The notes below the pieces were generated by a model. It was not told the DNA's origin and searched no databases. It saw only the letters and a list, made by a program, of their open reading frames with translations. The translations under genes and the position numbers were made by a program. Positions 9,456 to 57,311 of a stretch of DNA of 64,000 nt are shown here, in pieces. Positions within the stretch are counted from its first letter, which is position 1; every line of letters starts with the position of its first letter. The DNA is from Minisyncoccota bacterium (GTDB lineage: Bacteria; Patescibacteriota; Minisyncoccia; Phycocordibacterales; GWA1-40-21): positions 193,946 through 257,945 of the forward strand of contig JBAZRH010000002.1 of assembly GCA_041663045.1 (NCBI GenBank). Reading direction: 5' to 3'.

Positions 9456-9986
9456 TTATTTTCCTGCTTCTTTTTTGGCTAAAATTAAAACTCCATTAAC
9501 AAACTCACTCTTCCCACTAATGTACGAATCTTTTCCTGTTGGATTATTCTTTAATAACTTTTTCTTTAATTTTTGGTATTCATCTCTCAAATCAGAATGT
9601 TTTCTCAAGTAATCTCTAAATAATATCTGTCTTTCCCAAAAGCCTCCTTTGTCAGTATAGGCAATAGAAAGATGAAATTCTGTAGGATTACCTTTCCTAA
9701 ACAAGTGCCTTTCCGCACTGGAATTTAGCTTATCATAGGAATATCTGAATCCCTCAAGTGGTTTGATAAAAGCATCAGCATCTTTTTGATTCTCTATCAT
9801 TACTGCAATATCAATAATTGGTTTTGAAGCTAACCCTTCAATAGATGTACTGCCAATATGTTCAATAGCGATTACTTTATCACCAAATATTTCTTTCAAT
9901 TTACTTTTTTCTGTCTCAAATCTGTCTTTCCAAGATGATTGATAAGATATTAAGATTGCATGTGATGAATCGTTCATAAAATACAT
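9456..9986 (-). CDS. grpB: GrpB-family protein (UPF0157, nucleotidyltransferase fold)
   Basis: IEHIGSTSIEGLASKPIIDIAVMIE signature. Confidence 0.8.
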   Translation of the reverse strand: MYFMNDSSHAILISYQSSWKDRFETEKSKLKEIFGDKVIAIEHIGSTSIEGLASKPIIDIAVMIENQKDADAFIKPLEGFRYSYDKLNSSAERHLFRKGNPTEFHLSIAYTDKGGFWERQILFRDYLRKHSDLRDEYQKLKKKLLKNNPTGKDSYISGKSEFVNGVLILAKKEAGK

Positions 9987-20014: not shown

Positions 20015-20421
20015 TTATTGTTAGAGAATCTCTTGATATATTCTCTAACAATACTCTCACAATTAAAAGCGAATCTTAACCCTTCCAACTTCCCCACTGA
20101 GAAGAATTCCCCGCACTGCCCTTCTTTGACCTTTAGATTTCTTAATTTTATTTGATTATCTACTTTTCTAAACATATGTATGTCGTAACCGTCAAAAGGG
20201 AAAACGCCTAAATATTCTGGATCTAAAAGCGTGTAACCTAATTCTTCTTTTATCTCTCTGATTATCGCTTCTTTCGGGGTTTCTCCTTTCTCGATTTGTC
20301 CACCGAAAGTTCCCCAAGTATTTGGATAAGGTATTGCACTTTTATTATCTCTTAACTGTAAGAGAATCTCTCCTTTAGTATTTTCTAATATAAGTCCACA
20401 TTGTGGTCTGTCTTTAGACAT
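20011..20421 (-). CDS. NUDIX hydrolase
   Basis: Nudix box GGQIEKGETPKEAIIREIKEELGY; start codon 5 nt from the tRNA-Gly 3' end. Confidence 0.8.
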   Translation of the reverse strand: MSKDRPQCGLILENTKGEILLQLRDNKSAIPYPNTWGTFGGQIEKGETPKEAIIREIKEELGYTLLDPEYLGVFPFDGYDIHMFRKVDNQIKLRNLKVKEGQCGEFFSVGKLEGLRFAFNCESIVREYIKRFSNNN

Positions 20422-20425
20422 TTTG

Positions 20426-20496
20426 TGCGGGCGCCGAGAATCGAACTCGGATCAACACATTGGAAGTGTGTCATTCTACCATTAAACCACGCCCGC
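20426..20496 (-). tRNA. tRNA-Gly (anticodon UCC)
   Basis: Acceptor GCGGGCG/CGCCCGC, anticodon stem ACACA/TGTGT with loop CTTCCAA, T-arm CCGAGTTCGATTCTCGG. Confidence 0.85.
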
Positions 20497-21520: not shown

Positions 21521-22228
21521 TTAAATAATCTTCACTATTTTTGCTTTTTCCGCTGATTTTTTAATAATTATCTCATCTCCTGGATTCAAAGGTATCTCTT
21601 CAGCGTGATTGTCCGCATAAGCCATCGCTGGTCCGCGCATTATTTTCACTTTTATTTCTGAATCATCCCTTATCACCATATGGTCAGATTGCTCCGTACT
21701 GTTATTGAAAGCGATTCCAATACCGACTTCAAAGAAGCTGTCTGTGATAGCACGATAGTAGCCCGTAGAACCAAACGGCGTCGATATTGCCACCCCATCT
21801 CCTATTATTTCATGCCCGATTTGCTTACCATTTACAAAGATTTCATATCTTATGGCTTGTCTTGGGTCGCTATTATGGACGATAATTTCATTTAGCCCAA
21901 CAATTCGCCTGTCTTTTGTATTTCCCTCAATTTTTATTTCTTCTTCGGTTCTATATTCCCCTTTCGCGACCTTCTCTAATATCTCTTCATTTGGCAAATG
22001 ATGACCCTTTTTTGTCGTATGGCTTTTCTTCAAAATAAATTTCGGAATTCCAGGAAAGTCTTTCTCACATTTCATAAATGTGCCATCACCCCCGTAGCTT
22101 GCCACGAGATCGATAGATTTTTCGTGGCTTGCGATTATTTCTGTCCCACTTTCAACCACATCAAGACCCACCTTTTCAGCAAGTTTTTCAATTTCTTTTG
22201 TATTCTCGCCGTAGATTAGAATCTTCAT
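21521..22228 (-). CDS. nadK: NAD kinase
   Basis: GGDGT motif and DGVAISTPFGSTGY (the NadK NE/D...TGSTAY region). Confidence 0.85.
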   Translation of the reverse strand: MKILIYGENTKEIEKLAEKVGLDVVESGTEIIASHEKSIDLVASYGGDGTFMKCEKDFPGIPKFILKKSHTTKKGHHLPNEEILEKVAKGEYRTEEEIKIEGNTKDRRIVGLNEIIVHNSDPRQAIRYEIFVNGKQIGHEIIGDGVAISTPFGSTGYYRAITDSFFEVGIGIAFNNSTEQSDHMVIRDDSEIKVKIMRGPAMAYADNHAEEIPLNPGDEIIIKKSAEKAKIVKII

Positions 22229-22231
22229 TTG

Positions 22232-22297
22232 TCGGGGCGCAGGGATTTGAACCCTGACTATCCGCCTCAGGCGGAGATATTACCTATAATCACACCG
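22232..22297 (-). pseudogene. degenerate tRNA-like copy; its 3' 30 nt are identical to the tRNA-Pro 3' part
   Basis: 66 nt. T-arm and acceptor 3' strand (TAGTCAGGGTTCAAATCCCTGCGCCCCGA) are identical to tRNA-Pro. The 5' acceptor strand CGGTGTG still pairs, but the anticodon arm is a 6-bp stem with a 3-nt loop (TCCGCC-TGA-GGCGGA). Confidence 0.55.
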
Positions 22298-22318
22298 ATA
22301 CCTTTTCTATCTTTATGG

Positions 22319-22389
22319 TCGGGGCGCAGGGATTTGAACCCTGACTACATGCTCCCAAAGCATGGATGCTACCGTTACACCACGCCCCG
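22319..22389 (-). tRNA. tRNA-Pro (anticodon UGG)
   Basis: Acceptor CGGGGCG/CGCCCCG, D-stem GTGT/GCAT, anticodon stem CATGC/GCATG with loop TTTGGGA, T-arm CAGGGTTCAAATCCCTG. Confidence 0.85.
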
Positions 22390-22592
22390 ATATTAAAAGA
22401 TATTAGCATAAAAGTTGTAACGAAGCGAGGGATAAAAATTTTTGTTAGGGGTGGCGAGCCTGCCCCTTTTGAAATGCCTTGGGAGCGCGACGGCGCGAGC
22501 ACGAGGAATTTTTTAGCAAGAAAATATCCGTGCATTTCAAAAGGGGCAGGTCGACAGGACCCCGTGAAAATTTTTATCCAGACAAGCCTCTC

Positions 22593-24131
22593 TCACTGTA
22601 CCCAATGCTTCCCTCTTATCTTTTTCACCTCCTTTTCATTTTCTATTTCCTTTTTTTCTTTCCCTTCCTCGCCGATTTTCTTCAATTCTTTTATTGGCAA
22701 CTTCATAAGTTCTTTCGCACGATTTTCCAAATATTCTTCAGTATTGAGTTTTGGATCTTCAAGTACATCTTCGAGAAGTGCATGCAAAACAAAGCCAACT
22801 TTTGGCCCCGGAGCTTCTTTTGTGACTTCCATAAGTCTTCCCCCATCTATTTTCAGCATTCCCACAGAAATCGGGTCTCTAGTCGCCTCTTCTATCATGG
22901 CATGATATTTTCTTAAGCGATACGGATCGGCTTTTGGTCTGCCCATACCTATCCTATCGGCGATTCGCACATTCATCAAATCCCAAATATTATCTTTGCC
23001 TACTTGAGCGATAATCCTTCTCACAGCCGACAAACTTATCTGCTCAGTATCAGAGAAAAACATATGCCATCTGACAAGCTTAACCACTTTTTCAATAACT
23101 TTTTTCGGATATTTTAAATCGGTGAGAATTTTTTCTGTCATTCTCGCGCCGATCACTTCATGCCCATAGAAAGTCCATTTTTCCTTGCCCGCCTCTTTGG
23201 AGGGGCCCTCGGCCCCTGCCCTGCGAGATTTAGGCTTGCCGATATCGTGAAGCAATGCAGATAATCTTATATCCAAAGGCCACTTTTTATCCGCCGTCTC
23301 CTGAAGCGCCCTCAAAGAATGTTCCCAAACATCATAAATATGGGCACCCTTTTGTTCTATGCTGATAGTCTTTTCCAAATCAGGAATAATATATTTCAAA
23401 ATTCCAAATTTTTGGCAGGATTTTATGCCTTCCATTGGCGTATCCGACATTATTATTTTTGTAAATTCATCGCGTATTCTTTCTTTAGAGATTTTTGCAA
23501 GAAGCCCCGATTCTACAAGCAAAGCTTTCTCCGTGGCTTTATCAATTTCAAAACCGACAAAATTTGCAATCCTTACTGCACGCAAAATCCTCAAACCATC
23601 TTCTTGAAATCTTTCATGTGGGTCGCCGACAGTCCTCAAGACTTTTTTCTTCAAATCATCTTGCCCGCCATAATAGTCCTCAATATTTCCTTTATAAAAT
23701 CCTTCCTTACTCCCCTCTTCTGTGATATTCAATGCAATTGCATTTATGGTGAAATCTCTTCTGTGAAGATCATCGTCTAGCTTTTCACTAAAAATAACTG
23801 CATCGGGTCTCCTATTATCTGAATATTCTGCTTCAAGTCTGTATGGAGTGACTTCTATCACCTTCACTGCTTCGTCTACGGTATTTTCATTTACAACACC
23901 AACAGTACCAAAAGTATTTTCATAAAAAGTCTTTGGAAAAGTGGCAATAATCTGTTCCGGCTTTGCATTTGTCGTAATGTCCCAATCTTTTGGAATAATG
24001 CCGAGCAAAATATCTCTCACACATCCGCCTATGAGATACGCCTCAAAACCCGCCTTTTTCAAAGTCTGCGACGCCTCCCAAACCTCCTTTGGTATCGGCC
24101 CGAATTCTGTTTTATTTGAAGTTTTCTTCAT
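22593..24131 (-). CDS. cca: CCA-adding tRNA nucleotidyltransferase with C-terminal HD domain
   Basis: LIGGCVRDILLG...DWDITT head domain and HD motif HDIGKP, plus a K/E-rich tail. The likely start is MKKTSNK; the track start at 24221 adds an improbable 30-aa extension. Confidence 0.85.
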   Translation of the reverse strand: MKKTSNKTEFGPIPKEVWEASQTLKKAGFEAYLIGGCVRDILLGIIPKDWDITTNAKPEQIIATFPKTFYENTFGTVGVVNENTVDEAVKVIEVTPYRLEAEYSDNRRPDAVIFSEKLDDDLHRRDFTINAIALNITEEGSKEGFYKGNIEDYYGGQDDLKKKVLRTVGDPHERFQEDGLRILRAVRIANFVGFEIDKATEKALLVESGLLAKISKERIRDEFTKIIMSDTPMEGIKSCQKFGILKYIIPDLEKTISIEQKGAHIYDVWEHSLRALQETADKKWPLDIRLSALLHDIGKPKSRRAGAEGPSKEAGKEKWTFYGHEVIGARMTEKILTDLKYPKKVIEKVVKLVRWHMFFSDTEQISLSAVRRIIAQVGKDNIWDLMNVRIADRIGMGRPKADPYRLRKYHAMIEEATRDPISVGMLKIDGGRLMEVTKEAPGPKVGFVLHALLEDVLEDPKLNTEEYLENRAKELMKLPIKELKKIGEEGKEKKEIENEKEVKKIRGKHWVQ

Positions 24132-24523
24132 TAGATGAATTTTAGCAGATATTTTGATAAAAAGAAAAGCGCACTTCCCGGAGGTCATGCGCGATTGGAG
24201 AATGAAACACATCAGAGGCACTTCAGTGTGTTAGGAAGTGAAGGATTGCAATCCCCACAATAAACAGAAACACAATCGAAAATGCTTTGACGTTGTCTCG
24301 GTTGGTCAGGAAGAGATATATTCTCGACTTAAAGAACTCTTCTTCTGCGTGATGCTGTTCGTTCTGTACGTGCGTAAACGGAGGTGTCGGAGGCATTTTG
24401 TCCAGTCCTTTCTTAATGTGCTTTTTTCACAGTGTGATTACTGTAAAAATCATCAACTTTGATAACTAATTAATAATATCAGCCTTTAGACAATATGTCA
24501 AACTAACTCATATTTTTATTTTG

Positions 24524-24595
24524 TGCGCTCGGCAGGACTCGAACCCGCAACAACAGTTCCGAAGACTGTTGTGATATCCATTTCACCACGAGCGC
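24524..24595 (-). tRNA. tRNA-Arg (anticodon UCG)
   Basis: Acceptor GCGCTCG/CGAGCGC, D-stem GTGA/TCAC, anticodon stem ACAGT/ACTGT with loop CTTCGGA, T-arm GCGGGTTCGAGTCCTGC. Confidence 0.85.
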
Positions 24596-24756
24596 AATAT
24601 TAAACTCCCCCATTAGGATTCGGTCACGACTTTTGCTCGGCCGTCGCCATCGCAAAGTCTCGACCCCGACTCGCTTCCAATCCTGCTGGCTTAGGGCCCG
24701 CTCCGTCCTTTAAATCTTTCGCAAGTAAAGACTTTTACTTGCTTTCTAAGATTTAA
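24596..24756 (-). repeat. GC-rich tRNA-associated structured element (family member)
   Basis: In tRNA orientation it contains GGAAGCGAGTCGGGGTCGAGAC, a stem-loop CTTTTGC-GATGGCGACGGCCGAG-CAAAAG, and ends GTGACCGAATCCTAATGGGGGAG; G+C far above flanks. Confidence 0.6.
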
Positions 24757-24809
24757 ACCCACAACAACAGTTCCGAAGACTGTTGTGATATCCATTTCAC
24801 CATGGGAGC
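24757..24809 (-). pseudogene. partial tRNA copy: D-arm and anticodon arm identical to tRNA-Arg(UCG), with a different 5' acceptor strand and no T-arm
   Basis: 41 nt identical to the tRNA-Arg body; acceptor 5' strand GCTCCCA. The element's terminal AATGGGGGAG could pair with it. Confidence 0.55.
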
Positions 24810-24896
24810 ATTTCATCATAATACGCTAAATTGGCTAAAAATCAAAAAACAATTTTGTTTTTTTATAAAATTGTGTATAATACAAAAAGTAAATTT

Positions 24897-24967
24897 GCGG
24901 GCGTAGTTTAATGGTAGAACTAGTCCTTGCCAAGGATTGGGTTCGGGTCCGATTCCCGACGCCCGCA
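24897..24967 (+). tRNA. tRNA-Gly (anticodon GCC)
   Basis: Acceptor GCGGGCG/CGCCCGC, anticodon stem AGTCC/GGATT with loop TTGCCAA, T-arm TCGGGTCCGATTCCCGA; TATAAT at 24876-24881 upstream. Confidence 0.85.
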
Positions 24968-25017
24968 CACATAGCAAAAAAGCGCGTAACTGCGCTTTTT
25001 TGCTATGTGTGCGGGCG
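24960..25017 (+). terminator. 26-bp perfect inverted repeat incorporating the tRNA-Gly acceptor 3' strand
   Basis: CGCCCGCACACATAGCAAAAAAGCGC-GTAACT-GCGCTTTTTTGCTATGTGTGCGGGCG. Confidence 0.6.
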
Positions 25018-25548
25018 CAATGATTTTTATAACATTCACACTAAATCCTTTCACATGAAACACGACTTTCTCTCAAAGACACACCTCCCTACTTCAAAGA
25101 CACATAATGACATGAAAAGCAGATATGAAAATAAGTGGATAATTTATAGCTTTTAATATAAGGGTATTTTCACATGAAACTGTGGATAACTATGTGAATA
25201 TGTGTATAAAAGACGACCAATAGAATCTGGCAAATTCGAGCCTTTTAGATGTCTTTTATTAAAAATACGGCTAACTGTGAGGGTAGGACATAAAATACAT
25301 TGTCTGAAATACAATCTGTCCTATATCAAAAACGTTTCTTAGAAACGTTTTAATTTGTCTCGTGTGAAAAGATTAGAATGTGTTAAAGAGACCAAAAACA
25401 CACAAAAATCAATAAAAAATTCAAAAATCTATAATAAACAAGTAAAAATACGTGAAAATCTTGAGTAATTATAAGAATATAATGATTTTTACACGAAATG
25501 AATGTTTTTTTGTGATATTTTGATTAATTATGATATAATTTACTCATA

Positions 25549-27863: not shown

Positions 27864-27895
27864 GGCGAAACTCTTGGGGAAAGACTTCAAATTTC

Positions 27896-27990
27896 CCCTT
27901 CTTATCAAACTCATCACTAAAACAAAAAGTGGTAAGTTTGTAGGAAGATATAGGGTCTTCTTAAACAGGTTCTTTGAGAAAGGGAAAAAC
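27896..27990 (+). promoter_or_regulatory. conserved structured 5' leader, copy 1 of 3 (Shine-Dalgarno-sequestering hairpin)
   Basis: ~95 nt aligned with the copies at 28221..28316 and 36451..36548: CTCATCAC/GTGGTAAG stem, GGAAG/CTTC stem, and TTCTTT/AAAGGG covering the Shine-Dalgarno sequence; preceded by a terminator-like hairpin at 27876..27898. Confidence 0.5.
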
Positions 27991-28170: not shown

Positions 28171-28220
28171 TTGACTGCAGTACTTCGGGCAACCGCTTCG
28201 CCCCACAAGCGAAACGGTTG

Positions 28221-28316
28221 CCCTTCTTATCAAATTCATCACTAACAAAAATGTGGTGAGTTTGTAGGAAGGCAAAACGCTTTTCTAAACGAGTTCTTTG
28301 AGAAAAGGAGAAAGTT
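28221..28316 (+). promoter_or_regulatory. conserved structured 5' leader, copy 2 of 3
   Basis: CCCTTCTTATCAAATTCATCACTAACAAAAATGTGGTGAGTTTGTAGGAAGG...TTCTTTGAGAAAAGGAGAAAGTT-ATG; preceded by a hairpin at 28187..28223. Confidence 0.5.
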
Positions 28317-35367: not shown

Positions 35368-35464
35368 CCCCAGTGAAGTATCCGCCTATGGCGGAGAAAT
35401 CTTAAAAGATTTCACTTCACGGGGTGATGATTTTTATATTCACTTCGCTCATTAAAAATCAATC
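35368..35464 (+). promoter_or_regulatory. duplicated structured upstream module (copy 1), abutting the NYN gene start
   Basis: CCCCAGTGAAG...CTTCACGGGG stem, then TGATGATTTTTATATTCACTTCGCTCATTAAAAATCAATC-ATG; the 3' 47 nt are identical to 43829..43875 apart from two a/g swaps. Confidence 0.5.
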
Positions 35465-35989
35465 ATGTCAGTAATAAAACACAAAAATCAGAGAGTTGGG
35501 ATTTTTATAGATACACAAAATTTATATCATTCAGCTAAGAATCTGTATGGAGCCAAGGTCAACTTCGGCCAAGTCGTCAAAGACGCATTGGATGGAAGAG
35601 TTTTGATCAGAGCGACAGCATATGTCATCACCACAGAATCTGGAGACGAGAAAAGCTTTTTCGAAGCTCTTGGTAAGGTTGGTATCACGACAAAGACAAA
35701 AAATCTACAGATTTTCCCCGGTGGAGCCAAGAAAGCAGACTGGGATGTCGGTATGGCGATAGATGCTATATCACTTTCAGCAAAAGTGGATGCAGTGGTC
35801 TTGATCACAGGCGACGGAGACTTTATTCCGCTTGTAGAATATTTGAAAATCAAACAAGGATGCCAAGTGGAAGTAGTTTCCTTTGGTAAATCAACATCAG
35901 CCAAGCTCATAGAAGCCGTAGATGGCTTTATGGATTTGGATGTAAATCCGAGAAAATATTTGCTAGGGACGGGAGGGGGGAAGAGGTAG
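35465..35989 (+). CDS. NYN-domain (LabA-like, PIN-fold) protein
   Basis: RVGIFIDTQNLY...VVLITGDGDF. Confidence 0.75.
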   Translation: MSVIKHKNQRVGIFIDTQNLYHSAKNLYGAKVNFGQVVKDALDGRVLIRATAYVITTESGDEKSFFEALGKVGITTKTKNLQIFPGGAKKADWDVGMAIDAISLSAKVDAVVLITGDGDFIPLVEYLKIKQGCQVEVVSFGKSTSAKLIEAVDGFMDLDVNPRKYLLGTGGGKR

Positions 35990-43795: not shown

Positions 43796-43875
43796 CCCCA
43801 GTGAAATATGCCATCTACGTCGGCATTTCACGGGGTGATGATTTTTATATTCGCTTCACTCATTAAAAATCAATC
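43796..43875 (+). promoter_or_regulatory. duplicated structured upstream module (copy 2), abutting the comM/yifB start
   Basis: CCCCA-GTGAAAT-AT-GCC...GGC-ATTTCAC-GGGG hairpin then TGATGATTTTTATATTCGCTTCACTCATTAAAAATCAATC-ATG. Confidence 0.5.
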
Positions 43876-45477
43876 ATGTCCTTTGCAAAAACTTTTAGCG
43901 CACAGACCGTCGGTTTGGGTGCAGAAATTATTGATGTAGAAGTTGATTTATCAAAAGGTTTACACTCCTTCTCTATTGTGGGCCTCGGAGATAAAGCAGT
44001 AGAAGAGTCACGTGATAGAGTTTCGGCTTCTATTAAAAATTGCGGTTACAAATCTCCTAAAAATAAGAATCAGAAAGTTGTTGTTTCACTAGCTCCAGCA
44101 GATGTTCGCAAAGAAGGTCCGGCTTTTGACGTAGCCATATCACTTGCATACCTTTTGGCGGATGGGGAGATCAAATTTGATTCAAAGAAGAAACTTTTTC
44201 TTGGCGAGCTTTCTCTTGATGGCAAACTTAGGAAAATAAATGGCGTTTTGCCGATTGTGGCAGAGGCAAAAAGGCGAGGTTTTGAGGAGGTCTTTTTGCC
44301 AAAAGAGAATACAAAAGAAGCAGCGCTAGTCTCTGATATAAATATTTATGGTGCAGAAAATCTGGGGCAGATAATCGGCCACTTGGATGAAGGCGATGCT
44401 CCAAGAAAAGGGAAGTCAAGAGAAATTGACCCAGAGACTTTTGAAGCAGAAGATGAATTTATTTCGCAGAAAATAAATCCAGAACCGCAGACAGAGATTC
44501 TCGTAGAAGAAGACGAAGCTATAATAGATTTTAGTGAAATCAAAGGTCAGGAAACTGCCAAAAGAGGGCTTGAAATAGCCGCCGCTGGCGGACACAATAT
44601 CGCTATGTATGGGCCACCGGGGACAGGCAAGACAATGCTTGCAAAAGCATTTAGTCATATTCTTCCACCACTTTCTTTCGATGAAATACTGGAGATAACA
44701 GCCATACATTCTGTGTCTGGAAATCTGAAAAAAGATATTATTTCGAAACCTCCCGTCCGCGCACCACATCATACCTCTTCTTATGTTTCACTTGTCGGTG
44801 GAGGCACAGTGCCAAAGCCTGGGGAGGTGACACTTGCTCATGGCGGAGTGCTTTTCTTGGATGAATTTCCAGAATTTGATAGGAAAGTTATTGAAGCACT
44901 CCGTGAACCACTTGAAGAAGGGGAGATCACTATCTCTCGTGCCCGAGGTTCACATGCTTTCCCTGCCAATTTTATTCTCATCGCCGCCATGAATCCGTGC
45001 CCTTGTGGAAACTTTGGCTCAAAGACAAAAGAGTGTATTTGTAAGCCGACAGATTTGCTTCGATATCAGAGGAAAATCTCTGGGCCGATAGTGGACAGAA
45101 TAGATATGTGGGTGGAAGTCTCGCAGATAAATTATGAAAAGCTCGGTGAGAAAGAAAATATTAAAAAAGAGACGGCCGATATAAAAAAGAGGGTGACAAA
45201 AGCGAGAGAAATCCAAAAAGAGAGATTTACTGCTGGAAAGAGAAAAATTCGCACAAATAGCGAAATGGAAGCCAAAGATATTTTGAAACTTGCCGACTTG
45301 GAAGACAAAGCTAAAGGTATTTTAATTTCTTCCGCAAGAAAGCTAGATCTTTCTGCTCGTGCATATCACAGGGTTATAAAACTCGCGAGAACCATTGCTG
45401 ATCTTGAAGGGAGTGAAAGTATAAAGACAAATCATATCTTGGAGGCGTTGCAGTATAGGCCGAAGAGGAATCAATAA
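43876..45477 (+). CDS. comM: Mg-chelatase-like AAA+ ATPase YifB/ComM
   Basis: N-terminal Lon-like domain, Walker A GPPGTGKTML, C-terminal Mg-chelatase region. Confidence 0.85.
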   Translation: MSFAKTFSAQTVGLGAEIIDVEVDLSKGLHSFSIVGLGDKAVEESRDRVSASIKNCGYKSPKNKNQKVVVSLAPADVRKEGPAFDVAISLAYLLADGEIKFDSKKKLFLGELSLDGKLRKINGVLPIVAEAKRRGFEEVFLPKENTKEAALVSDINIYGAENLGQIIGHLDEGDAPRKGKSREIDPETFEAEDEFISQKINPEPQTEILVEEDEAIIDFSEIKGQETAKRGLEIAAAGGHNIAMYGPPGTGKTMLAKAFSHILPPLSFDEILEITAIHSVSGNLKKDIISKPPVRAPHHTSSYVSLVGGGTVPKPGEVTLAHGGVLFLDEFPEFDRKVIEALREPLEEGEITISRARGSHAFPANFILIAAMNPCPCGNFGSKTKECICKPTDLLRYQRKISGPIVDRIDMWVEVSQINYEKLGEKENIKKETADIKKRVTKAREIQKERFTAGKRKIRTNSEMEAKDILKLADLEDKAKGILISSARKLDLSARAYHRVIKLARTIADLEGSESIKTNHILEALQYRPKRNQ

Positions 45478-50476: not shown

Positions 50477-50563
50477 GGAAGAGTGGCTGAGTGGTTTAAA
50501 GCACCGGTCTTGAAAACCGGAGGGCTCGCAAGGGTCCCGTGAGTTCGAATCTCACCTCTTCCG
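50477..50563 (+). tRNA. tRNA-Ser (anticodon UGA), long variable arm
   Basis: Acceptor GGAAGAG/CTCTTCC, anticodon stem CCGGT/ACCGG with loop CTTGAAA, variable arm GGGCTCGCAAGGGTCCC, T-arm GTGAGTTCGAATCTCAC. Confidence 0.85.
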
Positions 50564-50584
50564 CATTAACAAAAAATGCCGATA

Positions 50585-50777
50585 ATAAATATCGGTATTT
50601 TTTGTTAACTATGCGAAAGCTTGCCGAGATTCGAACGGCGGAGCACACGGAGCGAAGCGGAGTCTGTCGCGAGCACGCGACAGGCACGAGCCGGTGCCCA
50701 ACCCGAATCCGAGCGACGGCGAGGATGAGAGGTGCGGGCGAATCTCACCTCTTCCGCATTAACAAAAAATGCCGATA
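50585..50777 (+). repeat. GC-rich tRNA-trailing element ending in an exact 38-nt copy of the tRNA-Ser 3' end plus terminator
   Basis: Direct repeat GAATCTCACCTCTTCCGCATTAACAAAAAATGCCGATA at 50547..50584 and 50740..50777. Interior contains antisense GAGATTCGAAC, hairpins CTGTCGCG-AGCA-CGCGACAG and GGCAC-GAGCCG-GTGCC, and ATCC-GAGCGACGGCGAG-GGAT. Confidence 0.65.
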
Positions 50778-50802
50778 TTTATTATCGGTGTTTTTTGTTT
50801 TG

Positions 50803-55108: not shown

Positions 55109-55180
55109 GCCGCCATAGTTCAATGGATAGAACAGAGCTCTTCTAAGGCTTTGATGTAGGTTCGATTCCTACTGGCGGCA
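55109..55180 (+). tRNA. tRNA-Arg (anticodon UCU)
   Basis: Acceptor GCCGCCA/TGGCGGC, D-arm GTTCAATGGATAGAAC, anticodon loop CTTCTAA, T-arm GTAGGTTCGATTCCTAC. Confidence 0.8.
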
Positions 55181-55480
55181 CAAAATGAAAAAGGTGGAAA
55201 TCAATCCGCCTTTTTCATTTTGTGTCGCCAAGCAAGCAAACTGCTTTGCTTGCGGGTAGGAATCGAACAGCGGAACTATGTTTTTTCAGCAGAAAAAACT
55301 AGTGAGCTGGTGCCCAGACTTTTTCGAGCGACGGCGAGAAAAAAGTCGAGGGAGATAAGCGAAGTGGTCCTGCTGGAATCGAAGCCCCATTGAGCGTTTT
55401 TTGTAATTTCTGAATGAACAAAAAATCCAATGGGGGGGGTACTGACCCTGTAAGGGTCGATATCCTGCTGGCGGCTTTTT
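55181..55480 (+). repeat. composite GC-rich tRNA-trailing element(s) with two degenerate copies of the tRNA-Arg 3' end
   Basis: Terminator at 55180..55224; antisense GTAGGAATCGAAC (55256..55268); hairpin GACTTTTTC-GAGCGACGGCGAG-AAAAAAGTC (55317..55347); 3'-end-like GGAATCGAAGCCCC and GGGTCGATATCCTGCTGGCGGC-TTTTT (55454..55480). Confidence 0.6.
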
Positions 55481-55516: not shown

Positions 55517-55589
55517 GGGCGATTAGCTCAGTTGGTAGAGCGCTTCATTTACACTGAAGATGTCACAGGTTCGAGTCCTGTATCGCCCA
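55517..55589 (+). tRNA. tRNA-Val (anticodon UAC)
   Basis: Acceptor GGGCGAT/ATCGCCC, D-arm GCTCAGTTGGTAGAGC, anticodon stem CTTCA/TGAAG with loop TTTACAC, T-arm ACAGGTTCGAGTCCTGT. Confidence 0.85.
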
Positions 55590-55742
55590 CAGGCAAAAAG
55601 AGGGCAAATGCGAAAACTTGAAGTATTTGTTCTCTTTTTGGCTAATGATACAGGATTCGAAAGACGGAACACGACGGTGTGAGTCGGGGTCGCAGGATTT
55701 TCTAGCAGGAAAATACCTGTGACCGAGTCCTGTATCGCCCAC
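55590..55742 (+). repeat. GC-rich tRNA-trailing element ending in a 19-nt exact copy of the tRNA-Val 3' end
   Basis: Antisense GATACAGGATTCG (55647..55659); GGTGTGAGTCGGGGTCGCAGG; junction CTGTGACCGAGTCCTGTATCGCCCAC (55717..55742) then TTTTTT-ATG of rluA. Confidence 0.65.
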
Positions 55743-57078: not shown

Positions 57079-57162
57079 GCACGGGTGGCGAAACTGGTAG
57101 ACGCACTACCTTGAGGTGGTAGCGCCCGTAAGGGCGTGGAGGTTCGAGTCCTCTCCCGTGCA
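57079..57162 (+). tRNA. tRNA-Leu (anticodon GAG), long variable arm
   Basis: Acceptor GCACGGG/CCCGTGC, anticodon stem CTACC/GGTAG with loop TTGAGGT, variable arm CGCCCGTAAGGGCG, T-arm GGAGGTTCGAGTCCTCT. Confidence 0.8.
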
Positions 57163-57311
57163 CAAAATAAGCAAATTTATTTGCTTATGTAATTGGGGAC
57201 GAGAAAACCGGAGCGATGCCGAGCCAGCAGGCGAGGCCGTGAGGCGGGGTCGAGAGTTTTTGTGAGCGACGGCGAACAAAAAACTTGTGACCGAGTCCTC
57301 TCCCGTGCACA
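57163..57311 (+). repeat. GC-rich tRNA-trailing element ending in a 20-nt exact copy of the tRNA-Leu 3' end
   Basis: Terminator-like hairpin at 57165..57188; CCGTGAGGCGGGGTCGAGAG; hairpin AGTTTTTGT-GAGCGACGGCGA-ACAAAAACT (57255..57284); junction TTGTGACCGAGTCCTCTCCCGTGCACA then ATT-ATG of the pduO-type gene. Confidence 0.65.

Follow-up and report, generated by a model that had tools for sequence, protein, structure and literature searches.

A tRNA-like copy of tRNA-Pro in front of an NAD-kinase gene in a Minisyncoccota bacterium and its relation to duplicated tRNA 3' ends in Paceibacteria

Introduction

A 64,000-nt stretch of DNA from a Minisyncoccota bacterium (GenBank assembly GCA_041663045.1, contig JBAZRH010000002.1, positions 193,946 to 257,945; the whole stretch is called the window) carries an intact gene for tRNA-Pro(UGG) and, 21 nt behind it, a 66-nt tRNA-like copy that stops directly in front of an open reading frame (ORF) for an NAD-kinase-like protein. 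Is this copy a tRNA, the scar of an integrated element, or a piece of a tRNA gene that was put to another use? From a comparison with related Paceibacteria loci we hold, with moderate confidence, that it is a non-decoding pseudo-tRNA which arose by a local duplication and whose 3' half was kept as a putative cleavage site that would free a near-leaderless NAD-kinase mRNA. Coordinates are positions in the window; tRNA-Pro, the copy (also called the stub) and the NAD-kinase ORF are all located on the minus strand. The features are collected in Table 1.

The copy of tRNA-Pro does not fold into a decoding tRNA

The first-pass annotation of this DNA had described a tRNA-Pro with a tRNA-like copy 21 nt downstream and had stated that the two share their last 30 nt exactly. 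Both statements were borne out, for the minus strand, and the repeat finder returned the shared part as family D6 (22231-22260 and 22318-22347), with 100% identity and a spacing of 87 nt, spanning tRNA positions 44-73 and C74. The two members of the repeat are separated by 55-57 nt in which there is no ORF. In the copy, the acceptor-like 5' strand is followed by an AT-rich remnant of the D-arm, a hairpin and the unchanged 3' part of tRNA-Pro. The Rfam tRNA model (RF00005, gathering score 29) spans the copy from end to end with 26.6 bits (E=0.002 in 500 nt), which is below the gathering score, and in this alignment the D-arm is shortened and 3 nt are missing in the anticodon loop. ARAGORN, run over the window, called no tRNA from 22297 to 22232, and neither ARAGORN nor the Rfam model gave a normal tRNA with a 7-nt loop.

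Folding with RNAfold gave an acceptor-like stem (CGGUGUG/CGCCCCG) with five Watson-Crick pairs, one G-U pair and one mismatch (6/7 paired), a 6-bp stem with a UGA triloop instead of a 5-bp anticodon stem with a 7-nt loop and U33, and a T-arm with the same GTTCAAATC-type loop as in tRNA-Pro. The manual fold proposed before (6-bp stem with UGA triloop, collapsed D-arm, pairable acceptor stem) thus agrees with RNAfold and the Rfam alignment. A 7-nt anticodon loop would require broken G-C pairs and would have a C at position 33; the copy cannot decode. Besides, the copy matched the Rfam mascRNA model weakly (19.7 bits). The 5' 37 nt have a marginal gapped similarity to tRNA-Pro (alignment p ~0.04), and the chance of finding the acceptor-complementary 7-mer (6/7 pairing) amounts to ~0.002 per position. 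A hairpin of the form TCCGCC-NNN-GGCGGA is the generic terminator type in these genomes, and one at position 646 of the related locus L001 is identical including the TGA loop; the hairpin was therefore rejected as a mobile module.

The copy holds the ancestral place of tRNA-Pro

The discriminator of the copy is followed by only three nucleotides (CAA) and then by the ATG of the NAD-kinase gene (…CGCCCCGA-CAA-ATG). This start is fixed by a conserved N-terminus, MK(I/L)LIYG (alignment A2), and the protein is 100% identical to a protein with PF20143 from a metagenome-assembled genome (MAG) of Candidatus Paceibacterota. A gene encoding the CCA-adding enzyme (22593-24221) is located immediately upstream of tRNA-Pro, and the order CCA-adding enzyme, tRNA-Pro, NAD kinase is kept in relatives. 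There, a genuine tRNA-Pro precedes the NAD kinase. In L086 (72% NAD-kinase identity) and L089, its 3' end (…CCGAC) is followed by AA and the NAD-kinase ATG; the junction reads AAA-GTG in L009, CCA-A-ATG in L021 and ACT-ATG in L025. In L001, which is the closest relative with sequence here (78% NAD-kinase identity), ATT separates tRNA-Pro from the ATG of an 85-aa ORF, which overlaps the start of the NAD-kinase gene. In alignment A4, the copy and the NAD-kinase start of the window run collinear to the junctions between true tRNA-Pro and NAD kinase in L086, L089 and L009; on the 5' side, the intact tRNA-Pro of the window and the tRNA-Pro of L001 have orthologous flanks. Because the copy holds the 3' junction and the intact tRNA holds the 5' flank, the distance between the two flanks of one ancestral gene has grown by 87 nt.

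The repeat does not end with the tRNA but runs on into locus-specific sequence (…GACCATAAAGAT versus …GACAAATGAAGAT). The intact tRNA-Pro is followed by CCATAAAGAT… and the copy by CAAATGAAGAT…, and the first ~11-16 nt of the spacer between them are a diverged duplicate of the NAD-kinase start (CAA-ATGAAGAT…), in which the ATG has become ATA. Since the repeat reaches the first codons of the NAD kinase, the duplicated material is local and was not brought by an attP-bearing element. A spacing of 87 nt equals a 71-nt tRNA plus 16 nt, and therefore a tandem duplication of the gene with a little flank is arithmetically sufficient. The flank duplicates are ~11/16 identical, the tRNA parts 30/30, which argues that the 3' half of the copy was held identical, by conversion or by selection. 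Judged from these alignments, the Pro locus is a local 87-bp duplication of tRNA-Pro and the first downstream bases and not a foreign att site.

The stub was not found in L001, and as such it is conserved in none of the ~95 related loci. A scan of metagenomes for closer relatives gave 12 loci, none above 72% identity, and the locus with 72% ends 26 nt upstream of the NAD kinase. Absence from all relatives had been named beforehand as an observation that would speak against the copy; taken literally, no relative, L001 included, has this very copy, yet analogous short copies are present after tRNA-Pro(CGG) in L014, L023 and L030.

A possible processing signal in front of the NAD-kinase gene

After the duplication, the upstream unit stayed a normal tRNA-Pro and the downstream unit kept the ancestral place at the NAD-kinase start codon. 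In the downstream unit, the 5' half would have been remodelled, with the D-arm lost and the anticodon arm turned into a stable 6-bp triloop hairpin as in the terminators of these genomes, and the variable loop, T-arm and acceptor 3' strand would have been kept identical by gene conversion and/or selection. What would remain is the acceptor/T-arm minihelix. In tRNAs, this minihelix is the part recognised by RNase P, by RNase Z-type 3' processing and by the CCA-adding enzyme. tRNA-Pro, the stub and the NAD kinase are probably transcribed together; neither a promoter-like nor a terminator-like site was seen between tRNA-Pro and the NAD kinase. A cut at the discriminator of the stub would free an NAD-kinase mRNA with a 3-nt leader, and the genuine tRNA-Pro would act likewise in relatives. 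Since the stub keeps the minihelix and tRNA genes abut ORFs clade-wide, we infer a cleavage signal for the NAD-kinase mRNA.

The clade-wide arrangement was seen in ~85 related loci, in which an ATG ORF of at least 80 aa starts <=~10 nt after the tRNA 3' end for 30/225 tRNAs, compared to 1/225 in the antisense control. The abutment of tRNA and ORF is thus an arrangement of the whole clade, and it suggests that tRNA 3' processing may yield near-leaderless mRNAs. ORFs are likewise found directly behind 7-9 of 40 displaced 3'-end copies, those of tRNA-Leu (ATT-ATG) and tRNA-Val of the window among them. Thus, of two functions considered before, a processing signal has strong contextual support, as just 3 nt separate the copy from the NAD-kinase ATG, at the very place of the true tRNA-Pro in relatives, with the cleavage itself as the conjectural part; nothing was found in favour of a decoy.

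Several observations weigh against a processing role. Co-transcription and cleavage are pure inference. The closest relative L001 has no stub, from which it follows that the stub either arose recently or can be done without. In L014 and L023, the short copies behind tRNA-Pro(CGG) precede terminators and further inserts and not an ORF, and their 5' part is not tRNA-like; therefore, a processing role cannot explain the whole class. A gapless comparison by eye of the 5' half of the stub with tRNA-Pro gave 13/42 identities and the gapped similarity is marginal, so that this half could be unrelated filler and not a decayed tRNA half. The identity of the 3' halves could come from a recent conversion without function, and the sequence comes from a MAG.

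Two observations on tRNA ends stand beside this. In the window, AAA lies between tRNA-Gly(UCC) (20421-20496, minus strand) and the ATG of a NUDIX-like ORF, and in some relatives the spacer from tRNA to ATG is 0-3 nt long or the encoded CCA overlaps the ATG (CCATG); direct abutment was found in L001, L002, L005, L021, L025 and others. The tRNA-Pro of the window encodes its 3' CCA (22316-22318), the other tRNAs of the window that were read (e.g. Val, Leu, Ser, His) do not.

Copies of tRNA 3' ends in related Paceibacteria loci

The first-pass annotation had also remarked that other tRNAs of the window are trailed by partial copies of their 3' ends. This holds: exact 19-nt copies are located 128-174 nt downstream of the Ser, Val and Leu tRNAs, and those behind Arg(TCT) and Arg(TCG) are degenerate. 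A survey was made of 230 tRNAs called by ARAGORN in the window and ~85 related Paceibacteria loci, in which a copy was defined by the last 16 nt of the tRNA itself with <=3 mismatches, at a distance of <=500 nt and on the same strand. A downstream direct copy was found for 41/230 tRNAs and an upstream copy for none, which is much too uneven for chance; 40 cases were left after redundant loci had been removed. At a distance of 0.5-10 kb, no copy of a tRNA 3' end was found in 84 related loci.

The inserts enclosed in this way are mostly GC-rich and cluster at lengths of 100-250 nt. The identity to the tRNA begins nearly always in the T-loop, at C56 or, in insert family D, at G53/T54, and the junctions are sharp and specific for the insert family. 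Typically, the tRNA is followed by a terminator palindrome, the 3' arm of which runs on as reverse complement of the acceptor 3' strand, then often by a conserved hairpin (GCAAGCAAACTGYTTTGCTTGC). Next come a left arm, in which the T-stem 3' strand and T-loop recur as reverse complement, a GC-rich multi-hairpin core and finally a right arm, which is the direct copy of the tRNA 3' end. The left arm is present in 61/214 tRNAs, about a quarter, a number that includes a few false positives from convergent tRNAs. Downstream flank is duplicated together with the tRNA end in L023 (17 nt), behind tRNA-Ser of the window (41 nt of terminator) and at the Pro locus. Tandem arrays and nested copies of inserts occur, and some host tRNAs are dead, for example the upstream copy of tRNA-Arg(UCG) in the window, which is rescued by a second, intact gene.

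The cores form several families that are common to different tRNA species and genomes. Of 70 core loci found with nhmmer, 65 are located <=520 nt downstream of a tRNA on the same strand, and decayed tRNA 3' ends precede three of the other five. In family D, with 11 copies behind Ala, Arg, Asp, Lys, Met and Pro tRNAs, 91.7% of the cells are paired, compared to 28-59% in slid controls; 11 pairs have compensatory changes (2-4 in controls), and the observed covariation was reached by 0/500 shuffles. Furthermore, the tRNA-sense strand of the cores folds better than the complement by 5.5 kcal/mol, in 32/34 cases (p = 7e-7), which exceeds the asymmetry of the tRNAs themselves and points to a single-stranded form, RNA or top-strand DNA.

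Scans of the window and nine related regions with Rfam 15 at gathering and E-value thresholds returned only tRNAs and chance-level matches, and the inserts were therefore rejected as a known RNA family. Hammerhead, twister, hepatitis delta virus-like, transfer-messenger RNA-like and RNase P-like RNAs, considered for the cores by eye, had no support in these scans. Group I introns were rejected because the upstream tRNA is intact and the inserts are too small; those in tRNAs of Patescibacteria are located at position 35/36 and are >200 nt long (PMC13011429). Remnants of large islands were dismissed on account of the missing 3'-end copies at 0.5-10 kb. The conserved hairpin and the family D signature had no match in viral contigs, and the five 16-mer matches of family B to viral contigs fall in unrelated coding sequence, so that a phage origin of the inserts was rejected as well. 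A full-text search of the literature found no account of tRNA 3'-end duplications or T-loop inserts in Patescibacteria. The clade-wide insert family appears to be undescribed and a more interesting lead than the stub.

Relation of the tRNA-Pro copy to the inserts and rival explanations

Is the Pro locus one of these inserts? It shares with them the polarity, the sharp 5' junction and the co-duplicated downstream flank. It differs in its junction, which is located at 43/44 in the variable loop, before TAGTC, and it keeps the whole T-arm. The filler in front of the junction has neither a left arm complementary to the T-arm nor a conserved multi-hairpin core, only the acceptor-complementary 7-mer and one hairpin, and nhmmer found no homolog of it in 1.3 Mb of related sequence. 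Most like the Pro locus are the copies after tRNA-Pro(CGG) in L014, L023 and L030, which are exact copies of the last 33 nt, start at the same place and are preceded by a small triloop hairpin (CTCC-gNa-GGAG). Their 'insert' is partly duplicated flank and terminator, their 5' part is not tRNA-like, and they are followed by terminators, not by ORFs. The earlier view of the Pro locus as the phenomenon in its minimal form can thus be kept for polarity, junction sharpness and flank duplication and has to be given up for the junction site, the whole T-arm and the missing left arm and core. We see in the stub a short and atypical case of the same tendency to duplicate, not a member of the structured-insert families.

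This bears on the strongest rival explanation, in which the Pro locus is the footprint of a non-coding mobile element without host function: a filler of ~45-55 nt would have been inserted at tRNA-Pro 43/44 by the machinery of the 100-250-nt T-loop inserts, which would make a long target-site duplication (positions 44-73 and ~10-16 nt of flank) and leave the tRNA intact. The clade-wide pattern speaks for this: it is polar (41/230 downstream, 0 upstream), the junctions are sharp and family-specific, the cores are homologous across tRNA species and genomes and, in 65/70 cases, tied to a same-strand tRNA, tandem and nested arrays occur, and flank was co-duplicated in L023, behind tRNA-Ser and at the Pro locus itself. 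In addition, a related hairpin element is present or absent between near-identical relatives (see below), and short inserts with the same junction follow tRNA-Pro(CGG) in L014, L023 and L030. The Pro filler, on the other hand, has no homolog in the 1.3 Mb, has no left arm and core, and its junction is outside the T-loop; a decayed tRNA half would account for its size and its weak resemblance to a tRNA. None of the inserts has a recombinase, reverse transcriptase or nuclease linked to it, and viral contigs contain no true match to the core signatures. We consider a mobile footprint at this locus rather doubtful.

As to how the duplications arise, they are local, anchored at a fixed point within the tRNA, reach 17-67 nt downstream and enclose 14-460 nt. 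Three schemes each fit parts of the data: a Campbell-type insertion of a small hairpin-att element or circle, by analogy to integron attC and CTXphi; template switching after fold-back, with the palindromic T-loop (TTCGAA) and the terminator as its sites and short-homology conversion as the way in which cores would spread; or a target-primed insertion, for which the first nick would be at a fixed point of the T-loop and the second at a variable one. The co-duplication of locus-specific flank argues against imported att sequences, and the cores common to different tRNAs argue for some mobility. For the Pro locus, we claim no more than that an insert is enclosed by a local duplication.

Much less probable is that the Pro locus is the attL/attR remnant of a phage or integrative element with a tyrosine integrase that was later deleted almost wholly, with its two att copies left behind at a distance of 57 nt. 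The textbook signature of integration is indeed an intact tRNA beside which its 3' part is repeated in direct orientation (PMC9897764; bioRxiv 10.1101/2020.12.28.424599). But the repeats enclose just 55-57 nt without a gene, and the repeat reaches the coding start of the NAD kinase, which an incoming attP would not carry. Copies at 0.5-10 kb are missing in 84 related loci, where only short-range ones occur, and the tightly clustered insert lengths are unlike the scatter expected from random deletions. We regard this origin as very improbable.

Even less credit is given to a copy that works as a non-canonical tRNA or as a tRNA mimic, be it a decoy for a tRNA-binding enzyme, a toxin or a phage factor. 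Its acceptor stem and T-arm are intact and its 3' part is identical to tRNA-Pro, but a 7-nt loop would need broken G-C pairs and have C33, the D-arm is degenerate, the Rfam score is below the cut-off, ARAGORN made no call, and the copy is missing from L001 and conserved as such in none of the ~95 related loci. That the 87-bp tandem structure is a mis-assembly, a thought suggested by the origin of the window from a MAG, is just as hard to believe, since a unique 48-nt filler and diverged flanks set the units apart, which is not something assemblers invent, and comparable structures recur in many independent assemblies.

Comparison with known systems

The preferred reading of the stub, a pseudo-tRNA kept as a candidate cleavage site, combines known things, namely a fragment of a tRNA gene and a tRNA-like processing signal. 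Such signals are known as plant mitochondrial t-elements, as tRNA punctuation in mitochondria and as mascRNA at the 3' end of MALAT1. Like them, the stub has a degenerate tRNA-like fold with acceptor stem and T-arm but no working anticodon arm, and its place is the very boundary of an mRNA, at which a cut by tRNA-processing enzymes would be possible. Unlike them, which are organellar or eukaryotic and experimentally established, it is bacterial (candidate phyla radiation, CPR), stands beside its intact parent tRNA and is a predicted signal. Should tRNA-processing enzymes cut the stub, it would be a case from bacteria of a tRNA-like element that no longer decodes and is kept as punctuation for a near-leaderless mRNA, and many CPR genes (13% of the tRNA neighbours here) may owe their 5' ends to tRNA processing.

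The structured inserts resemble three groups of known systems in part. Partial tRNA genes that serve as att sites flank integrated elements of 9-23 kb or more which encode an integrase (PMC9897764; tycheposons, bioRxiv 10.1101/2020.12.28.424599). As in these, an intact tRNA is followed on the same strand by a direct repeat of its 3' part, and most inserts of this clade join in the T-loop, a classical crossover position of integrases. Integrations in tRNA genes are said to have been sorted into sublocation classes by Williams in 2002. Unlike att sites, the repeats here enclose 46-460 nt with no gene and no linked integrase, and they extend into the flank of the locus (NAD-kinase codons, terminators), so that they are derived from the target and not from attP. 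A second group are small structured repeats of bacteria and miniature inverted-repeat transposable elements, such as REP/BIME, BOX, Correia, RUP and the Rickettsia palindromic elements. The wider insert family shares with them non-coding, GC-rich hairpin modules of 100-250 nt with many copies in each genome and insertion/deletion polymorphism; in contrast, those repeats have fixed terminal repeats, short fixed target duplications and no tRNA targeting, whereas here the arms are direct and inverted copies of the host tRNA 3' end and the duplication is 17-67 nt long. The third group are folded single-strand recombination sites (integron attC and the attP of CTXphi, used by XerCD) and systems with long duplications of the Cas1 type (CRISPR repeats, casposons at tRNA 3' ends). 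Here, too, the wider family has a hairpin that reproduces the duplex target (tRNA 3' end and its reverse complement), a strand-asymmetric structure, repeat-insert-repeat arrays and long target duplications, but an associated integrase or Cas1 is missing and the duplication length varies, so that the likeness is an analogy only.

A wider claim can be put forward tentatively, as a possibility: the Pro stub may be the smallest visible trace of undescribed non-coding elements, RNA-structured on the tRNA-sense strand, that colonise the tRNA 3' ends of Paceibacteria/CPR. These would enter at a fixed point of the T-loop (occasionally of the variable loop), duplicate the 3' segment so that the gene survives, recognise their target by nucleic-acid pairing, occupy about a quarter of the tRNA loci with several modular core families, and leave stubs that are reused as processing sites for mRNA 5' ends. 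Since an arm of the insert is complementary to the 3' segment of the tRNA, such elements would recognise the target by pairing of nucleic acids and not by a protein-specific att site. The observed wider pattern matters more than the stub: about a quarter of the tRNA genes of these ultra-small bacteria with covarying, strand-specific structured inserts, no Rfam family and no associated protein point to either an unknown insertion mechanism with long T-loop target duplications or an unknown class of tRNA-linked RNA. In practice, partial copies and dead tRNAs can mislead tRNA annotation and the prediction of att sites and prophages in CPR genomes.

Inserts and further elements in the window

The inserts behind the Ser, Arg(UCU), Val and Leu tRNAs of the window are 130-290 nt long and have inverted and direct copies of the tRNA 3' end joined at T-loop C56. 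A loop motif (GAGCGACGGCGAG) is shared by the window inserts, with 6 matches compared to 0.24 expected. The Ser insert consists of a terminator, the left arm (reverse complement of the tRNA 3' end), the core, a copy from C56 on (50739-50757) and a second copy of the terminator. Behind tRNA-Arg(UCU), the first of two tandem inserts has a family B core and a partial 3'-end copy (55366-55376), and the second ends in a degenerate copy, CGATATCCTGCTGGCGGC (55458-55475). The Val insert runs from a terminator through the left arm GATACAGGATTCGAA and a family A core to the 19-nt copy of the tRNA 3' end (55724-55742), which is followed by TTTTTT and the ATG of the next ORF; in the Leu insert, ATT lies between the 19-nt copy (57292-57310) and the next ATG, which starts an ORF.

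At the tRNA-Arg(UCG) locus, the 3' end of the upstream copy (24810-24739) pairs with the left arm of the insert and no longer with its own 5' strand. Behind this copy come a hairpin, the left arm, a family A core and the displaced 3' end of the original type, CGAATCCTAATGGGGGAG (24622-24605), and then the intact second tRNA-Arg(UCG) (24595-24523). In the Arg locus of L001, the first gene is intact, and it is the 3' end of the other Arg allele that closes the insert.

A GC-rich hairpin element of a related kind is located just 5' of tRNA-Pro, in the interval that separates it from the gene of the CCA-adding enzyme. It has perfect 19-bp arms (22459-22477 and 22532-22550), its core holds GAGCGCGACGGCGCGAGC and a TTTTTTAGCAAGAAAA hairpin, and it folds with -59.8 kcal/mol (z = -5.3). 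In the ortholog of L001 (~9520-9650), the core is conserved and the perfect arms of 19-25 bp are entirely different. The same kind of element is found in L091 (~2790-2900) and is missing from L090 and L096, which are ~96-97% identical; this shows a recent gain or loss. The comparison of L091 with L090 and L096 also revealed that the site of the element is flanked by two copies of a terminator hairpin.

Table 1 Features of the tRNA-Pro locus and of further tRNA loci in the window
Feature	Position	Strand	Evidence
tRNA-Pro(UGG), intact	22316-22389	-	ARAGORN call; Rfam tRNA 61.7 bits
tRNA-Pro landmarks: C1, discriminator A73, encoded CCA	22389, 22319, 22318-22316	-	sequence reading
21-nt spacer CCATAAAGATAGAAAAGGTAT, encoded CCA included	22298-22318	-	sequence reading, alignment A4
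66-nt tRNA-like pseudo-copy	22232-22297	-	Rfam tRNA 26.6 bits, RNAfold; no ARAGORN call
Acceptor-like 5' strand of the copy, CGGTGTG	22297-22291	-
Hairpin of the copy, TCCGCC-TGA-GGCGGA	22275-22261	-	RNAfold
TAGTC, T-arm, acceptor 3' strand and A73 of the copy	22260-22232	-
30-nt exact direct repeat, downstream member	22231-22260	-	partner 22318-22347; repeat finder, family D6
NAD-kinase-like ORF, ATG at 22228-22226	21521-22228	-	ORF list
GC-rich hairpin element 5' of tRNA-Pro, antisense to tRNA-Pro and the CCA-adding-enzyme gene	22446-22566	+
tRNA-Arg(UCG) locus, two genes	24523-24810	-	ARAGORN, repeat D7, Rfam
Insert behind tRNA-Ser(UGA) (50477-50564)	50565-50799	+	68-nt repeat D1, fold
Two tandem inserts behind tRNA-Arg(UCU) (55109-55181)	55182-55475	+
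Insert behind tRNA-Val(UAC) (55517-55590)	55591-55742	+	fold -51 kcal/mol, z = -6.95
Insert behind tRNA-Leu(GAG) (57079-57163), family A core	57164-57310	+

Further palindromes and repeats were observed. The rho-independent terminator after tRNA-Gly(GCC) (24961-25019) is a long palindrome (…CGCCCGCA…TGCGGGCG), and its 3' arm runs on as reverse complement of the acceptor 3' strand; therefore, the terminator can sequester the 3' end of the tRNA. Such an extended terminator palindrome is also found in L010 (11455-11580) and at many loci, even without an insert. A 57-nt direct repeat with 95% identity occurs at 35413-35469 and 43824-43880, 8.4 kb apart, and the copy at 35413-35469 is preceded by a TCCGCC-TAT-GGCGGA hairpin at 35381. 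Finally, 27893-27989 and 28218-28313 belong to the adjacent repeat families D3 and D10 with 77-88% identity and indicate a tandem duplication of ~325 nt.

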